Source of the DNA: Clostridia bacterium
Lineage (GTDB): Bacteria > Bacillota > Clostridia > TANB77 > CAG-508
DNA: 64,000 bases
Assembly (NCBI GenBank): GCA_022798335.1
Contig: JAAWMH010000015.1
Coordinates: 7,872-71,871, forward strand
Direction of reading: 5' to 3'
Position numbers and translations under genes: made by a program. The notes beneath the pieces are model-generated. The model was not told the DNA's origin. It made no database searches and worked only from the letters and a program-made list of their open reading frames with translations. Below, one piece after another: positions 4,074 to 60,505 of this stretch (positions are counted from its first letter, which is position 1; each line of letters starts with the position of its first letter).

Positions 4074-5747
<1,674 letters not shown>

Positions 5748-5775
5748 TTATCCGTAACTCGTTTCTCTTAAGCGG

Positions 5776-6063
5776 CTAACTTAATTCGACAAGTGCTAAA
5801 ATATCGCTATATTTTACAATCATTAAATCTTCTCCTTCATGTTTTATGCTTGTTCCTGCATATTGATTTAATACTACTTTATCGCCTTCTTTTACACATA
5901 TTTCTACTTTTTTTCCTTCACTGTCTATGCCTTCTCCTACTTTTAATACTTGAGCAATTTGTGATTTTTCTTCTGATTTACTTGTGATAATAAGACCGCT
6001 TTTAGTTGTTTCTTCTTTTTCTAACATTTTTACAATAACTCTGTCTCCTAATGGTTTTAACAT
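5776..6063 (-). CDS. groS: co-chaperonin GroES
   Basis: MLKPLGDRVIVK...YAGT motif, 95 aa. Confidence 0.95.
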   Translation of the reverse strand: MLKPLGDRVIVKMLEKEETTKSGLIITSKSEEKSQIAQVLKVGEGIDSEGKKVEICVKEGDKVVLNQYAGTSIKHEGEDLMIVKYSDILALVELS

Positions 6064-6126
6064 TATAATTCCTCCTTTTTGTTTACTGTTATTTATATGC
6101 TATGACTGCTTATTTTAGTATCTTTT

Positions 6127-6153
6127 TTATTTAAAATTAGCAGTCATATCTTA
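6127..6153 (-). promoter_or_regulatory. CIRCE operator (HrcA binding site) variant TTAGCAGTC-N9-GACTGCTAA
   Basis: perfect 9-bp inverted repeat with 9-nt spacer directly upstream of groES; canonical CIRCE is TTAGCACTC-N9-GAGTGCTAA. Confidence 0.8.
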
Positions 6154-6154
6154 T

Positions 6155-6193
6155 GACTGCTAATACTTTATACCCATTTTATATTCTTGTCAA
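6155..6193 (-). promoter_or_regulatory. putative sigmaA promoter of groESL (TTGACA -35, TATAAAGT -10 on minus strand) abutting CIRCE
   Basis: rc of 6188-6193 = TTGACA; about 15-17 nt spacer; -10 next to CIRCE as in other Firmicutes. Confidence 0.5.
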
Positions 6194-6247
6194 GTATCTG
6201 CTTTTATTTTTCACATATTTTTCACAATCTTATAGGTAAAAAGGATT

Positions 6248-7862
<1,615 letters not shown>

Positions 7863-11246: not shown

Positions 11247-12065
11247 CTATGCACTCTTAAGCTCAAGCCTTAATTTATCAGCAATCATTGCTATAAATTC
11301 TGAATTAGTAGGTTTACCTTTTGCGGCTGAAACGGTATATCCAAAAATATTTTCTACTGCTCCTTGTTCGCCTCTTCCCCAAGCAACTTCTATAGCATGG
11401 CGTATAGCTCTTTCTACTCTACTTGGAGTAGTATGATACTTCTCTGCAATTTCTGGATAAAGCTGTTTTGTAATTTGATTAATTACTTCTGTATCTTTAA
11501 CTACCATCATAATAGCTTCTCTTAAATATTGATACCCTTTAATATGTGCTGGTACTCCAACTTCATGTATTACATTTGTTACTAATGCTTCTAAACTTTC
11601 TTGATTTTTCTTTTTTTCTGGTGAAATATCAATATATTGACCTTTTATTTCTCTGCTTACTAACCCACCTCTAAATTGAGCTGGTTGAAAGTTTTTTAGC
11701 TCTTTCATTCTTTTTACAAGTACATTAATGTCAAAAGGTTTTACAATATAGTACTGTGCTCCTAAATTAATTGCTCTTTGTGTTATTTTATCTTGTCCTA
11801 CTGCTGACAAAATAATACATAATGGTTTTTTATCAATATCTGTTTCATATAGTTTTTCTAATACCCCTAATCCATCTAAATGTGGCATAATAATATCTAA
11901 TAATAAAATATCTGGTTGTAATTCTAGTACTAAATTATAGGCTTCGTTTCCATCTCTTGCAACTCCTATAATCTCTATTTGCTCCTCCTTTTCTAAATAA
12001 TTAGATAATGTCATCGTAAAGTCGTTATTGTCGTCTGCTACTAATACTGTAATTTTCTCGCTCAC
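11247..12065 (-). CDS. spo0A: sporulation master transcription factor Spo0A
   Basis: receiver domain ([10 protein letters not shown]...D...K) plus Spo0A-specific C-terminal DNA-binding signature [21 protein letters not shown]. Confidence 0.93.
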
Positions 12066-12220: not shown

Positions 12221-12842
12221 TCATTTTTTTCTTATATTTTTTTCTTTTATAATTTCCATATTTTGTATATTAAGCGTCTTTTTTTCTATTTCATACATTA
12301 TTTTTTCTTTTTCGTTAAAAGTTGTTTCTATTATAAAATGAACTGTTTGTTCAAATCTTGTTTGTATAACATTAATGTTATTATTTTGACAATATCGTTC
12401 AAAGTTTGAAAGTTCTGCATAATCTAAAATAACTTCTAATTCTAGTCCGTAATTCTTCTGTAACAATTTTACTACTTGCTATTGCTTCTTTTGTTACCTG
12501 GCTATATGCTCTAACAAGCCCTCCTGTTCCTAGCAAAGTTCCTCCAAAATACCTTGTTACTACTGCAATTACATTTGTTATTTCTTGCTTTTGTAACAAA
12601 TTTAACATAGGAGCTCCTGCTGTTCCACTTGGTTCTCCATCGTCGCTTGCTTTTTCTAGGATTACATTTTTTTCTTGAATTCTATAAGCAAAGCAATGAT
12701 GTTTTGCATCATAATGTTTTTTACGTATTTGCATTAATATTCCTTCTGCTTTTTCTACTGTTTGTGCATAATACAAATCACAAATAAATTTTGATTTTTT
12801 TTCTATTATTTGCGTTGTTACATTTTCTTTTATGGTTTTCAT
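12221..12842 (-). CDS. yigZ: IMPACT family protein YigZ (UPF0029 + DUF1949), frame broken by a single-C insertion
   Basis: ORFs 12399-12842 (IMPACT N-domain, GGTLLGTGGLVRAY) and 12221-12466 (DUF1949); removing C at about 12448 (ttaCggacta) joins them as ...VTEELGLELEVILDY... Confidence 0.75.
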
Positions 12843-47622: not shown

Positions 47623-47790
47623 TTCTATCTCCTCTTCTTTCCATTATATTCTAGTTCATTTTATGAAAAAGTTTTTAGAATATAACAAAAAGCAAAAGAC
47701 TTTTAAAATCTTTTCTTTTTTATAATATTGTGTAAAAACTCTAATTACTTTTAGAGTTATTTTTGTACCATTTTTTTCCAAAAAATCTCT

Positions 47791-47819
47791 TGACATTCTA
47801 TATAATTTGAATTATATTT
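47791..47819 (+). promoter_or_regulatory. putative sigmaA promoter of agrA/agrC (TTGACA-17 nt-TATATT)
   Basis: consensus -35 and near-consensus -10 about 110 nt upstream of the RR start. Confidence 0.4.
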
Positions 47820-47927
47820 ATAAAGATAATTGGAAATTTCTGGGTAATATTGTAGTATTTTGTCGTTTTTATACTTATATGGCATGTCAGTTTCTAATTG
47901 CTATGATTTATACGGAGGATAAAGTTA

Positions 47928-48673
47928 TGTTAGAGTTTGTTTTATGTGATGACAACAAGAATGTACTTCTTAGATTAGAAAAAATGTTGGATTCCATTTT
48001 TATTGATAAAAATTTTAATGCTCAAGTGGCTTTAAGTACTACTAAGCCAGACGAATTGATCAATTATATTAGAAATCATTCTGTTAATGTTATTTTTTTA
48101 GACATTGATTTAAAATCAAAAGTGTCAGGTCTAGATTTAGCTAGTATGATTCGTAAAAAGGATAAAAATGTGTATATTATTTTTACAACTGCTCATTTAG
48201 AATATGGCTTAATGGCATATAAATATAAAACTTTTGACTACCTTCCTAAGCCTATTACAATAGAACGATTAGAAGATACTCTTGTAAGATTATTTGAAGA
48301 TGTTTCTGGATCACATACTAATTTTGTACGATTAGATAATAATAAAACCATTATTAAACAAGATAGTATTCAATATATTCAAAAAGACGGAATGAAGGTT
48401 ATTTTTCACACTGATACTAGAGACTATGAAACTTATAGTTCATTTAAAAAGATTTTGCCTCAGCTTCCTAGTCAATTTGTACAGTGCCATAAATCTTATA
48501 TTGTTAATTTGCAAAAGGTAACAGATATTAATACAAGTGATAGCACCATCTTCTTAAATAATAATGAAGATGTAAAATGTTATATAGGTCCTAAATATAA
48601 AAATCAATTTATGGAGGTATTTAATGATGGAAATTTTTCAAACAATTTGGACAATTCTTACAACGCAAAATGA
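47928..48673 (+). CDS. agrA: LytTR-family response regulator (AgrA-like)
   Basis: receiver domain + C-terminal LytTR DNA-binding domain; GGAGG RBS before MLEFVLCDD (upstream in-frame Met of ORF track disfavoured). Confidence 0.8.
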
Positions 48674-49982
48674 AACTTTAGTAAAGCTGCTCTATTTTCC
48701 CCTTGCATTAATTGAAACTTTGGTAAATATGTTGCTATTTACCACTATATTAAGCATTCAATCTACAAGGAAATCTAAAATTATCTATGTATTAGTTTTA
48801 GGTTCAATTGCATTTATTTGCAGATCTTTTATTCCTGACCCTTATGGTACATTTCTTAATATTATAAATATAATTCTTTTATCTAAATTTATTTTAAAAA
48901 CTACTTGGATTAAATCTTTTCTCGCAGAATTTATTGCTATTGCAAGTACTAGCATTTTGGAATTATTTATGTTGCAATTTTATTCGACAATTTTAAAAAT
49001 TCCTTACGAATCTGTTATGACGATTCCAATCTATAGAGGCTTATTTACCCTTAGTATTTATTTTTGCATCTTTTTAATTTACAAAATTGTTCATTACTTT
49101 AAATTTCATATCAGTTTAGAAAAGATGACAAAGAAAAGTAAAGTTCTATTTATGATTAATGCTTTATTAGGTATTGTAGCAATGGGTATCCAATTTTATT
49201 TACTTGCTTTTTATAGTGATAAAATGCCTGTTGGAATTACTATTATTAGTATTGTCAGCTTACTTGGTTATTTCTTTATTAGTATTTATAACATTTTAAA
49301 TACTACCAAACTAGCTACTACTTCTCAAAGTTTAGAAGAAGCACAATTACATAACAAAACTTTAGTTTTATTACATGATAGCATGAGAGGATTTAAACAT
49401 GATTTTCATAATATTGTACAAGGTATTGGTGGTTATATTGATACAAATGATATGAAAGGTTTAAAAAGATATTATTCACAATTATTAAAAGATTGTAATC
49501 GCGTCAATAATTTAACTGCACTAAATCCAGCCATTATTAATAATCCACCTATCTACAGTGTAATGGCAGATAAATATCACAAAGCTGATAAAATTGGCAT
49601 TCAAATTAATTTAGGAATTTTTATTGATTTAAATGAACTTGAAAAGCATGTAAAAATTCTTCAATTTACTAGAATTTTAGGTATTTTATTAGATAATGCT
49701 ATTGAAGCTGCTTCTGAGTGTGAAGAAAAAGTAATTCATGTAAGTTTTAGAAAAGAAGAAACTCGTCATCGCTATGTAATGGTTATTGAAAATACTTATC
49801 TTAATAAAGATATTAATTTAGACCGTATTTTTGAAAAAGATTTTTCTACGAAATCTAAGAAAACTAATAATGGATTTGGTTTGTGGGAAGTAAGACAAAT
49901 TCTAAAGAAAAATAACAACTTAAATTTATATACTACTAAAAATGATGAATATTTTATTCAACAATTTGAAATTTATTATTAA
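48624..49982 (+). CDS. agrC: AgrC-like sensor histidine kinase (6-7 TM sensor + HPK10 GHKL ATPase)
   Basis: polytopic N-terminus; C-terminal ...VIENTYLNKDINLDRIFEKDFSTKSKKTNNGFGLWEV...; GGAGGT RBS; overlaps agrA 3' end. Confidence 0.75.
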   Translation: MMEIFQTIWTILTTQNETLVKLLYFPLALIETLVNMLLFTTILSIQSTRKSKIIYVLVLGSIAFICRSFIPDPYGTFLNIINIILLSKFILKTTWIKSFLAEFIAIASTSILELFMLQFYSTILKIPYESVMTIPIYRGLFTLSIYFCIFLIYKIVHYFKFHISLEKMTKKSKVLFMINALLGIVAMGIQFYLLAFYSDKMPVGITIISIVSLLGYFFISIYNILNTTKLATTSQSLEEAQLHNKTLVLLHDSMRGFKHDFHNIVQGIGGYIDTNDMKGLKRYYSQLLKDCNRVNNLTALNPAIINNPPIYSVMADKYHKADKIGIQINLGIFIDLNELEKHVKILQFTRILGILLDNAIEAASECEEKVIHVSFRKEETRHRYVMVIENTYLNKDINLDRIFEKDFSTKSKKTNNGFGLWEVRQILKKNNNLNLYTTKNDEYFIQQFEIYY

Positions 49983-50002
49983 CTCTACTTATAAAAACAT
50001 AA

Positions 50003-50047
50003 AAGTAGAGTTCAGCTCTAAAAATAGAACTCTACTTCGTCGTTTTT
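50003..50047 (+). terminator. hairpin terminator between convergent agrC and agrD (AAGTAGAGTTC...GAACTCTACTT + T-run); second overlapping hairpin serves the minus strand
   Basis: 11-bp stem then CGTCGTTTTTATGTTTTT. Confidence 0.55.
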
Positions 50048-50095
50048 ATGTTTTTAGGAAATATTTATATTTTTCGTTTTTTATCTTTTTTGAAC

Positions 50096-50221
50096 TAATC
50101 TTTTTTTATTAATGATGCAGGCATTTTTGGTTGATGTACAAGTCCAAAAACGATGCATGCAGTATTTGTAGATTTTGCATATTTTTCAGCTACTTTAGCT
50201 AATAATTTTAACATTTGTATT
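50096..50221 (-). CDS. agrD: AgrD-type autoinducing-peptide precursor (39 aa) - not in supplied ORF track
   Basis: MLKLLAKVAEKYAKSTNTACIVFGLVHQPKMPASLIKKD: amphipathic leader, Cys-containing core (CIVFG), clostridial-type HQPKMP C-terminal processing motif; AGGAGGG RBS; immediately downstream of agrB. Confidence 0.6.
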
Positions 50222-50281
50222 CCCTCCTAATTTATTTTTTATATAATAAGCATTGCCGGCTAATGCATTATTATCCTAACA

Positions 50282-50905
50282 CTATGAGGCTACCTCATCT
50301 TGATAAACCTCATACCCATATTTATTATTTGTAATTTTATAGCTAATTGGTAAAACTGTTAAATTTTGTAATGTTATACCATAAATAAACATATAGCTAA
50401 TCATTGGCGTTGGACTAAAAAGAATAATTCCTAGCAATATTGTTAAAGAAATATAGGCTTTTATCTTTTTAACTTTTCTTTCTTTTTTACTTAAAATTGG
50501 TACATTTTCTGTATCTGCTGGAGCATATTTGCAAATTACAAAAACACTAAATGTTCCTACTAGTGCTGCTAGAATATATAAAACATACTCTTGTGAAATA
50601 GTAATATATTTTGCAAGTAAAATTGGCCCTAAATATAGCATACTAGTAGTTACCATACAGCCTAAATGTGTTTTCAAATGAAAACCTCCTGTAAAACTAC
50701 GGTAAGCTGCTAATAAAAAAAAGAACGCAATTGTATACCAGCCAACTCCTAATATAAAACCTATGATAAATAGAAGAACAATTTTAGGTAATTCTCCAAA
50801 TATAAGCCTTACTCCAAAGTCGATAACCATTTCTTTTTCTTCATCTAGAGCGTCCATATTTTGCTTTATTTTCTGCATTACAAAATCACAAAATTTATCA
50901 ATCAT
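50282..50905 (-). CDS. agrB: AgrB accessory gene regulator B (AIP-processing membrane peptidase)
   Basis: RSFTGGFHLKTHLGCMVT matches AgrB catalytic His/Cys region; 4-6 TM. Confidence 0.8.
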   Translation of the reverse strand: MIDKFCDFVMQKIKQNMDALDEEKEMVIDFGVRLIFGELPKIVLLFIIGFILGVGWYTIAFFFLLAAYRSFTGGFHLKTHLGCMVTTSMLYLGPILLAKYITISQEYVLYILAALVGTFSVFVICKYAPADTENVPILSKKERKVKKIKAYISLTILLGIILFSPTPMISYMFIYGITLQNLTVLPISYKITNNKYGYEVYQDEVAS

Positions 50906-51014
50906 TTCTTTTACCTCAAAGCTTTATGATGATATTATTTTATATGCAAAAACTTTTTTATTATAACTTCTTTTATGAAATAAAGAAAACTTCTTGCAAA
51001 AAATATCCTTATTT

Positions 51015-51044
51015 ACTTTGATATATCTAAAAATCTATTTGATA
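51015..51044 (-). promoter_or_regulatory. candidate LytTR/AgrA binding site: 9-bp direct repeats TATCAAA(T/G) spaced 12 bp upstream of agrBD
   Basis: plus strand ACTTTGATA-N12-TATTTGATA with 21-bp period, about 110-140 nt upstream of agrB start. Confidence 0.4.
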
Positions 51045-51109
51045 AAGAAATGTTGATTATAACAACTAGTATATTTATTTGTATACTATAGGTGTTTGTT
51101 TTTTCTTAA

Positions 51110-60229: not shown

Positions 60230-60505
60230 AAATAATTGTATAACGTGCTACAATTAGTGTTATATTGATACAAGCATTTAATAAAGAAATAGTAATAAGT
60301 TTTTATTTTATGTAGAGAGGCTATGGTTGGTGAAAATAGCTTAAAATAATTTATGAATCCACTCTTTATTTGCTTTTTACGATGAGTAAAACCGTTTAAT
60401 GCTCGGTTACAAGCATTGTTAAGATATTTATGATACTCATAAATAATTAAGGTGGTACCGTGAGAATATATACCTCGCCCTTATTTTTGGGCGAGGTTTT
60501 TGTTT
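60230..60505 (+). promoter_or_regulatory. T-box riboswitch leader (probable Ser specifier UCC) with intrinsic terminator, upstream of DUF1653-serS
   Basis: T-box sequence AATTAAGGTGGTACCGTGAG at 60445-60464; terminator CCTCGCCC-N8-GGGCGAGG+T5 at 60472-60500; GAA-UCC-A specifier-like context at 60354-60362. Confidence 0.6.

Follow-up and report, generated by a model that had tools for sequence, protein, structure and literature searches.

A probable agr-type quorum-sensing circuit in two convergent operons of an uncultured gut Clostridia bacterium

In a stretch of 64,000 nucleotides of contig JAAWMH010000015.1 from an uncultured gut Clostridia bacterium (this whole stretch is called the window), four genes on opposing strands very probably make up a chromosomal agr-type peptide quorum-sensing circuit of two convergent operons, with an AgrA-like response regulator and an AgrC-like kinase encoded on the plus strand, and agrB and a 39-aa agrD on the minus strand (Table 1). 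The testable defining features of an agr-type system (AgrB, AgrD, a kinase of the HPK10 type and a regulator that joins a receiver (REC) and a LytTR domain) were all found, and the locus is apparently a complete, functional quorum-sensing system of the ordinary kind. An earlier note on this DNA, made from its letters alone, had proposed just such a complete locus, with agrA-agrC on the plus strand facing agrD-agrB on the minus strand. Both proposals hold: profile membership, invariant catalytic residues and conserved synteny agree on the completeness, and all four genes were found on the strands proposed, although the regulator start had been placed at 47928, one base off the correct start at 47927. 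The evidence consists of observed gene identities, invariant catalytic residues, patterns of conservation and selection, the architecture of a set of upstream sites and the geometry of the promoter that they adjoin.

Four genes of the agr type

All four open reading frames (ORFs) are intact, and a GGAGG-type ribosome-binding site stands at proper distance before each, 8 nt upstream in the case of the regulator gene and likewise 8 nt upstream, as GGAGGG, in the case of agrD. The kinase gene has a GGAGG site of its own and overlaps the 3' end of the regulator gene by 50 nt (48624-48673); the last ~6 residues of the regulator have no counterpart in most homologues. When compared with solved structures, the regulator proved closest to ComE (4cbv) and to the LytTR domain of AgrA (3bs1/4xqq), and the sole PDB matches of the kinase were Staphylococcus aureus AgrC structures (6e52, 3e-19; 4bxi); AgrB had no matches among the solved structures. 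Regulator and kinase align over their full length to the staphylococcal AgrA and AgrC equivalog models, the kinase to the NCBIfam AgrC model across residues 34-447 at a score below the equivalog cutoff, and the kinase has ~6 hydrophobic segments within residues 27-221. The AgrB protein scores far above the Pfam cutoff of 23 bits.

To obtain a comparative set, one genome per species was scanned for relatives of the window AgrB, which returned 72 loci (31-76% identity), almost all from metagenome-assembled genomes of uncultured gut Clostridia and including Clostridium sp. CAG:273, CAG:440, CAG:452 and CAG:389. Kinase and regulator genes lie directly downstream of agrD on the opposite strand in about 63 of the 72; three loci (L024, L041 and L032) have ~1.5-3 kb inserted between agrD and the kinase gene. 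Catalytic residues were compared across 56-72 homologues. In the regulator D59, T88 and K108 are invariant or nearly so (62 homologues), and in the kinase H259 (H-box, HDF), N358 (N-box) and G417 and G419 (GxGLW box) are invariant. H76 and C83 of AgrB, 7 residues apart, are invariant in 71 of 71 homologues, and the same spacing separates H77 and C84 of S. aureus AgrB.

The convergent arrangement had been put forward as a departure from the staphylococcal agrBDCA order. That difference is real, but we regard it as a minor variation, since clostridia are already known to carry agrBD and agrCA as separate operons, and to have other gene orders as well. Our literature searches yielded nothing specific on a convergent agrBD/agrCA layout, and we make no claim of priority.

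Table 1. Coordinates of the agr genes and of the elements found around them (positions in the window)
Feature	Position	Strand	Details
REC-LytTR response regulator (AgrA-like), 248 aa	47927..48673	+	Pfam Response_reg 58.5 bits, LytTR 70.5 bits
AgrC-like polytopic sensor histidine kinase, 452 aa	48624..49982	+	Pfam HATPase_c_5 64.3 bits
agrD, 39-aa autoinducing-peptide precursor	50095..50214	-	NCBIfam TIGR04223 30.4 bits
agrB, membrane endopeptidase/cyclase, 207 aa	50282..50905	-	Pfam AgrB (PF04647) 141.3 bits
Sigma-70-type promoter of the regulator-kinase operon	47790..47818	+	TTGACA-17-TATATT, 11/12 positions
Bidirectional terminator-like hairpin	50003..50037	both	11-bp stem AAGTAGAGTTC/GAACTCTACTT, T-rich tails on both strands
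Stem-loop between agrB and agrD (predicted)	50243..50274	-	ATAATAATGCATT-AGCCGGC-AATGCTTATTAT
-10 box of the agrBD promoter	50937..50942	-	TAAAAT; TAWAMT at fixed distance from site D
Site D (proximal)	50970-50981	-	ATTTCATAAAAG
Site C (proximal)	50991-51002	-	TTTTTGCAAGAA
Site B (distal)	51016-51027	-	GATATATCAAAG
Site A (distal)	51037-51048	-	TCTTTATCAAAT

The AgrD precursor and its predicted signal

At 39 aa, the agrD product falls under the 60-aa default of ORF listing. Its translation is exactly MLKLLAKVAEKYAKSTNTACIVFGLVHQPKMPASLIKKD, made up of an amphipathic leader (residues 1-19; hydrophobic moment 0.51, p=0.005), Cys20, a variable core (residues 21-26) and the follower HQPKMPASLIKKD (residues 27-39), and it passes the cutoff of 19 bits of TIGR04223, 'AgrD family cyclic lactone autoinducer peptide'. 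The ORF is kept in 70 of the 72 related loci, 59-147 nt past the end of the AgrB match. Among 71 loci there are 70 distinct AgrD sequences, yet the leader MLKLLAKVAEKYAKSTNTA and the follower are near-invariant, with many columns at 1.00 identity and most above 0.8; lower values (0.25-0.67) are limited to a few hydrophobic leader positions and residue 36, and HQP-MP of the follower is invariant. Of the 71 loci, 66 have Cys and five have Ser at position 20. At positions 21-26, by contrast, pairwise identity is only 0.14-0.21, the residues being hydrophobic or aromatic. The variable block comprises Cys/Ser plus six residues in 70 of the 71 loci; in the remaining one, L007, it has 6 residues instead of 7.

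This pattern extends to the codons. Identity at first, second and third codon positions of the flanks is 0.85-0.90, 0.94-0.96 and 0.69-0.74, and the flanks show 489 synonymous vs. 194 nonsynonymous differences from the window sequence, whereas the core varies at all three positions. Because third positions of the flanks are freer than second positions and the core is free throughout, agrD reads as a translated gene, with flanks under purifying selection around a diversifying cassette. The kinase shows the complementary pattern across the related loci: column identity is ~0.3 in its sensor half and ~0.55 in its catalytic half, so that a variable sensor accompanies the hypervariable AgrD core, as in the staphylococcal agr specificity groups. 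Together with the family match and the selection pattern, this bears out the earlier proposal that the small ORF encodes the precursor of an autoinducing peptide (AIP). In a collection of 5.8 billion proteins, searched with AgrD plus one extra upstream codon, 2027 clusters matched, and NCBI or JGI had already given some of them the name 'cyclic lactone autoinducer peptide'; among the best 120 of these clusters, 119 read C-x6-HQP and one reads C-x6-NQP, with 105 distinct cores. The likeness of HQPKMP to clostridial AgrD, also proposed before, is seen in its counterpart Y-E-P-K-M-P in Clostridium acetobutylicum AgrD and in HQPK of Clostridioides difficile AgrD1; the string 'HQPKMP' itself occurs in no paper of the searchable literature.

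These observations leave hardly any credit to the idea that the locus is a decaying or silent remnant, or belongs to another pheromone system (a ComCDE- or Pln-type bacteriocin circuit), and that no cyclic AIP is made. The source organism is uncultured, pairs of LytTR regulators and HPK10 kinases also serve double-glycine pheromone systems, and three loci (L017, L027 and L029, of which L029 ends ~160 nt past agrD and is uninformative) showed neither kinase nor regulator past agrBD in the sequence fetched for them, all of which could be read that way. A remnant, however, is hard to square with ORFs that are all intact and carry ribosome-binding sites, with invariant catalytic residues and with purifying selection on the AgrD flanks, and a ComCDE, Pln or Blp system with the presence of AgrB, with a peptide that passes the AgrD-family model and has no GG motif in its 39 residues, and with a locus that holds no peptidase-ABC exporter.

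Within the agr-type circuit, the size of the signal ring can be narrowed. The earlier note had read the mature signal as a five-residue thiolactone, CIVFG, whereas the macrocycle is probably the seven-residue CIVFGLV, judging from three observations. First, positions 25 and 26 vary like positions 21-24 (identity 0.18 and 0.16), and invariance begins abruptly at His27; had AgrB cut after Gly24, Leu25-Val26 would form part of the follower that it recognizes, where such hypervariability is unexpected. The length of the variable block is fixed at seven in 70 of 71 loci and in 119 of 120 database relatives. Second, with CIVFGLV the second Pro falls 6 residues past the ring end, the same distance at which S. 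aureus AgrD has its conserved Pro, and with CIVFG it would fall 8 residues past it. Third, reference rings end right before the [Y/H][E/Q]PK motif: in C. acetobutylicum AgrD the ring ends between ...GKCVLVTL and YEPKMPEELL (PMC10301443 supplement), its AIP [CVLVTL] having been detected by mass spectrometry as a 6-membered macrocycle without a tail (PMC8251862), and in C. difficile AgrD1 it ends between ...ANSTCPWII and HQPK (PMC8534292), the ring being predicted as [CPWII] (PMC8534292; PMC12312760). We therefore consider the same system with a CIVFG signal unlikely, while noting that five is by far the commonest size among characterized AIPs (PMC12312760), that Gly is the most frequent residue at position 24 (21 of 71 loci) and that it is nearly fixed there in the closest database relatives (C-x3-G-x2), where it could mark a cleavage point.

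AIP rings of 5, 6 and 9 residues are known (PMC12312760), so that the favored seven-residue ring, if correct, would be of a new size, yet inside the known 5-9 range. The residues that precede Cys20 (N17, T18 and A19) are conserved rather than variable, which fits a leader-cleavage site and a tail-free peptide, and the signal probably lacks a variable exocyclic tail. Other clostridial AIPs rearrange to a lactam (PMC8251862), and by analogy the predicted tail-free CIVFGLV could rearrange to a homodetic lactam.

Promoters, the four-site operator and the proposed circuit

Upstream of agrB the earlier note had pointed to a pair of 9-bp direct repeats with a 12-bp spacer, as bound by LytTR regulators, and had suggested autoinduction of agrBD. 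The repeats are real and unique: TATCAAA-N14-TATCAAA occurs once in the window (51017-51044, minus strand) vs. 0.01 expected from shuffles, its exact repeat unit of 7 nt and its 21-bp period being equivalent to units of 9 bp that a spacer of 12 bp separates. The pair does not stand alone, however: it makes up sites A and B of a four-site array. In the related loci, the distances that separate hits of a loose site pattern show sharp peaks at 21, 45 and 66 bp, and an iterative matrix search resolved four sites spaced 21, 24-25 and 21 bp apart, with the start of site A 137-148 nt and that of site D 71-83 nt upstream of the agrB ATG (~65 of 69 loci). Array scores have a median of 28.5 (window, 21.9), compared with -2.3 +/- 6.2 for a null of random AT-rich pieces, in which the few high scores come from pieces overlapping real arrays. 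With refined matrices the window array scores 26.6, the maximum of the 64-kb window on both strands (mean -46, sd 12.9); the next-best match (16.9, at 12244-12320) falls within a coding ORF, and we attribute it to chance. The array occurs essentially once per related locus and is essentially confined to agr loci. No published counterpart of such a four-site operator was found.

The family consensus of sites A and B is TTTTAYRAAA, repeated with a 21-bp period, and that of sites C and D, TTTYRTAWAW, is its reverse complement. The proximal pair is thus probably inverted relative to the distal one, at moderate support: C and D fit the A/B motif better in inverted orientation at 87 of 134 sites (Wilcoxon p=1.7e-4; position weight matrix correlation 0.83 vs. 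0.69), the motif being quasi-palindromic. Of 67 loci, 36 have a TAWAMT hexamer exactly 27 nt past site D, and 8 more have it at 26 nt. There is no good -35 hexamer in the agrBD promoter; site D lies immediately upstream of the -35 position. Phased sites at a fixed distance from a -10 box that lacks a -35 hexamer give the agrBD promoter what we read as the geometry of an activator-dependent promoter, like staphylococcal P2/P3. Conserved phased sites before agrB agree with the proposal of autoinduction through LytTR-style repeats, in which the regulator of the locus would be the protein that binds them.

It is quite improbable that the AT-rich sites before agrB are instead bound by another regulator, such as a CodY-like global repressor, and that agrBD is nutritionally controlled rather than autoinduced. 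CodY influences agr in other Firmicutes, the site motif has no GTT core of the kind found in AgrA boxes, and site A with its flank, AATTTTAYRAAAA, fits 11-12 of the 15 positions of the CodY consensus, AATTTTCWGAAAATT. Nonetheless the sites carry a near-invariant A (67 of 69 at site A) where CodY requires C, and their asymmetric half-sites misfit the CodY palindrome. The strict 21/24-25/21 phase at fixed distance from a -10 box without a -35 hexamer is an activator-dependent geometry, a 21-bp period with 9-10-bp units is a LytTR signature, and the array is essentially confined to agr loci, its sole extra copy (in L013) lying beside agrA before a divergent gene.

That extra copy, at 5483-5560 of L013, again comprises all four sites, and its -10 box, GATAAAAT, stands at the usual distance. 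It precedes a gene of the YcaO domain family (5634-7439; Pfam YcaO, 165 bits) that diverges from agrA and is a candidate regulon member; a homologue of this gene turned up neither in the window nor in the other loci fetched. In ~30 loci, e.g. L044, L013 and L064, the octamer TTATGTAA (or TTATGTNA) stands directly 5' of site A, where it could extend that site or be bound by another factor; neither the window nor its closest relatives have it. Sites B and C of ten loci (L025, L035, L038, L042, L049, L053, L055, L066, L011 and L013) pair as a perfect inverted repeat of 12-14 bp, e.g. ATCATATATGAAAA...TTTTCATATATGAT, with a T-run after it, and this repeat could double as the terminator of the upstream co-directional gene. 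We also considered a divergent RNAIII-like transcript, since the inverted pair-of-pairs recalls S. aureus P2/P3, and rejected it: in most loci the upstream RluA or methyltransferase gene is co-directional and ends 10-60 nt before site A, the window has only ~60 nt before the rluA terminator, and Rfam shows nothing near the locus.

The regulator-kinase operon is preceded by a promoter of another kind. Its sigma-70-type sequence is the best promoter-like match in the region, and in 54 of 63 related loci a TTGAYA-N16-18-TAWWWT match precedes the regulator gene. Pairs of array sites are not enriched there (median best score 5.3 vs. 5.9 for the null), and autoregulation of this operon was rejected, the upstream site pairs scoring no higher than the null. 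One perfect match to the site consensus, ATTTTATGAAAA, does lie ~120 nt upstream of the regulator promoter (47658-47669, plus strand); its pair score is not above the null and it is not conserved in other loci. Because a consensus sigma-70 promoter is present and array sites are absent, the receptor arm is probably constitutive, with only signal production autoinduced.

Two hairpins punctuate the convergent operons. The bidirectional terminator-like hairpin (folding z-scores -4.2 on the plus and -3.3 on the minus strand) separates their stop codons; a strict terminator scan found nothing between the operons, since the stem is AT-rich, and it was folding that revealed the hairpin. The stem-loop between agrB and agrD has a counterpart at the same place in 57 of 71 loci. 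The loop-proximal stem takes 35 different forms (compensatory changes), and 38 of the loops contain CCGG. No U-run follows the stem-loop; its role may lie in processing or stability, or in a weak attenuation that sets the AgrB:AgrD ratio. Rfam placed no RNA family near the agr locus, its only gathering-level match in the window being a T-box leader (60268-60485, plus strand; RF00230, 102 bits).

From these parts we propose the following circuit. By homology, AgrB would act as a membrane cysteine endopeptidase through His76 and Cys83, cutting the follower off the 39-aa AgrD and then closing a thiolactone between Cys20 and the new C-terminus, and the product would be the macrocycle C-I-V-F-G-L-V. 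The secreted peptide would be sensed by the variable, ~six-helix membrane domain of the AgrC-like kinase, which would phosphorylate the REC-LytTR regulator at Asp59. The regulator would then bind the operator, which can be written A> B> <C <D (centers 21/24-25/21 bp apart) and ends immediately upstream of the -35 position of a promoter with a -10 box only, and its binding would turn on agrB-agrD.

Several points weigh against this interpretation or qualify parts of it. The regulator scores 82.5 bits against a cutoff of 400 on the AgrA equivalog NF046049 and the kinase 90.7 bits against 500 on the AgrC equivalog NF046015, and since these scores fall so far under the cutoffs we take the two as distant relatives, not orthologues, of the staphylococcal proteins. 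Characterized LytTR regulators are described as binding direct repeats and are not known to bind an inverted pair-of-pairs, and the orientation of C and D has only the moderate support given above because of the quasi-palindromic motif. TTTTAYRAAA is unlike the staphylococcal AgrA box [TA][AC][CA]GTTN[AG][TG] and partly resembles the CodY box; sites A and B of the window have C at the R position, and the window array scores lower than the family median (21.9 vs. 28.5). Within the 64 kb of the window, agrBD are the only target genes that were found. The structure of the peptide and its ring size, the regulator as binder of the array and any downstream targets are inferred.

Known relatives, chromosomal setting and significance

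In peptide design the closest characterized relative is the agr system of C. acetobutylicum, which also has AgrB, AgrD, an AgrC-like kinase and a LytTR regulator in two transcription units (PMC10301443; PMC8251862). Its follower, YEPKMPEELL, is almost identical to HQPKMPASLI of the window, its ring exceeds five residues and its AIP has no exocyclic tail, both of which are predicted here. It differs in that its agrBD and agrCA operons are probably co-directional, whereas those of the window converge; the variable block has 7 residues here vs. 6 and the precursor 39 aa vs. 54, and no LanM-like effector gene adjoins the window locus.

With S. aureus agr the locus shares the same four protein families, the AgrB His/Cys spacing, a hypervariable AgrD core and sensor domain beside conserved catalytic parts, and phased 21-bp LytTR-type repeats just upstream of the -35 position of an activator-dependent promoter. 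None of the marks of staphylococcal agr membership (equivalog-level scores, a single P2 operon, a divergent RNAIII) was found, however: in place of a single P2-driven operon there are two convergent operons with a constitutive-looking receptor arm, there is no RNAIII-like gene or divergent promoter and most loci leave no space for a divergent transcript, the site consensus bears no relation to ACAGTTAAG, and the predicted ring has 7 residues vs. 5.

C. difficile agr2 has the same chromosomal order of regulator, kinase, D and B (PMC3754575), and agr1 has HQPK after the predicted ring of AgrD1 (PMC8534292). The agr2 genes apparently form one co-directional unit, an agrA2 insertion being expected to be polar on C2, D2 and B2 (PMC4453554), whereas here D-B is inverted relative to A-C; the C. 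difficile rings are predicted to have 5 residues and the precursors have at least 46 aa, vs. 39 here. Enterococcus faecalis fsrABDC/GBAP is likewise of the agr family, with a macrocycle of more than five residues (a 9-residue lactone) and direct action through a LytTR regulator without RNAIII (PMC12312760). It differs in its gene order, in FsrD being translated in frame with FsrB, and in its Ser lactone ring of 9 residues with a 2-residue tail.

Most related loci keep the same neighborhood, namely SAM-methyltransferase, RluA, [agrB agrD > < agrC agrA], polysaccharide deacetylase, YabP and YqfD. Because layout and neighborhood are kept in most related loci, we take the agr locus to be an old, vertically inherited part of the chromosome of this clade and not an island. 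Identity to the window is 65-88% for the flanking housekeeping genes and, in most loci, ~45% for AgrB and ~45% for the kinase, so the agr genes evolve faster than their surroundings. A window ORF at 11247-12065 (minus strand) resembles, by eye only (receiver plus C-terminal domain), the sporulation master regulator Spo0A, and together with YabP, YqfD and the deacetylase beside agr it identifies the source as a spore-forming organism. Sporulation is one of the traits that agr controls in other clostridia (PMC8251862, PMC10301443); the adjacency of the agr locus to sporulation genes may be coincidental. Elsewhere in the window, two adjacent overlapping ORFs on the minus strand (12399..12842 and 12221..12466) look by eye like one putative YigZ/IMPACT-family gene, whose split (12221-12842) reads like a frameshift or sequencing error. 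The second-best array-like match of the window, probably due to chance, falls within this pair of ORFs.

Agr is well understood in staphylococci and in a few pathogenic or industrial clostridia, and hardly in the uncultured commensal Clostridia that dominate the gut. The ~70 syntenic relatives form a clean comparative set, in which leader and follower stay fixed around a hypervariable 7-residue cassette, the receptor domain co-varies and the operator is precisely phased. Three features make this variant of interest: a signal ring that is probably a heptapeptide, a very large diversity of pherotypes built on one scaffold, and an operator of four sites. Annotators of genomes may note that it takes a 39-aa gene, one that is easily missed, to complete the system.

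Whether these loci represent a large uncharacterized agr subfamily of gut Clostridia that combines both a heptapeptide macrocycle and a symmetric four-site operator, A> B> <C <D, is in our judgment evenly balanced. If they do, a ring of Cys/Ser plus six residues would lie outside the described 5-, 6- and 9-residue AIPs, and the LytTR regulator would act through A> B> <C <D instead of a simple direct-repeat pair. Confirmation of the seven-residue ring would widen the cyclization range of AgrB and, together with the 5- and 6-ring families, offer a route to how AgrB sets ring size. An essentially invariant leader and follower reused for thousands of cores would amount to a natural library of orthogonal signal-receptor pairs, with potential for cross-inhibition between co-resident gut species, and the natural core variants could be mined for orthogonal signaling pairs or cross-species inhibitors.

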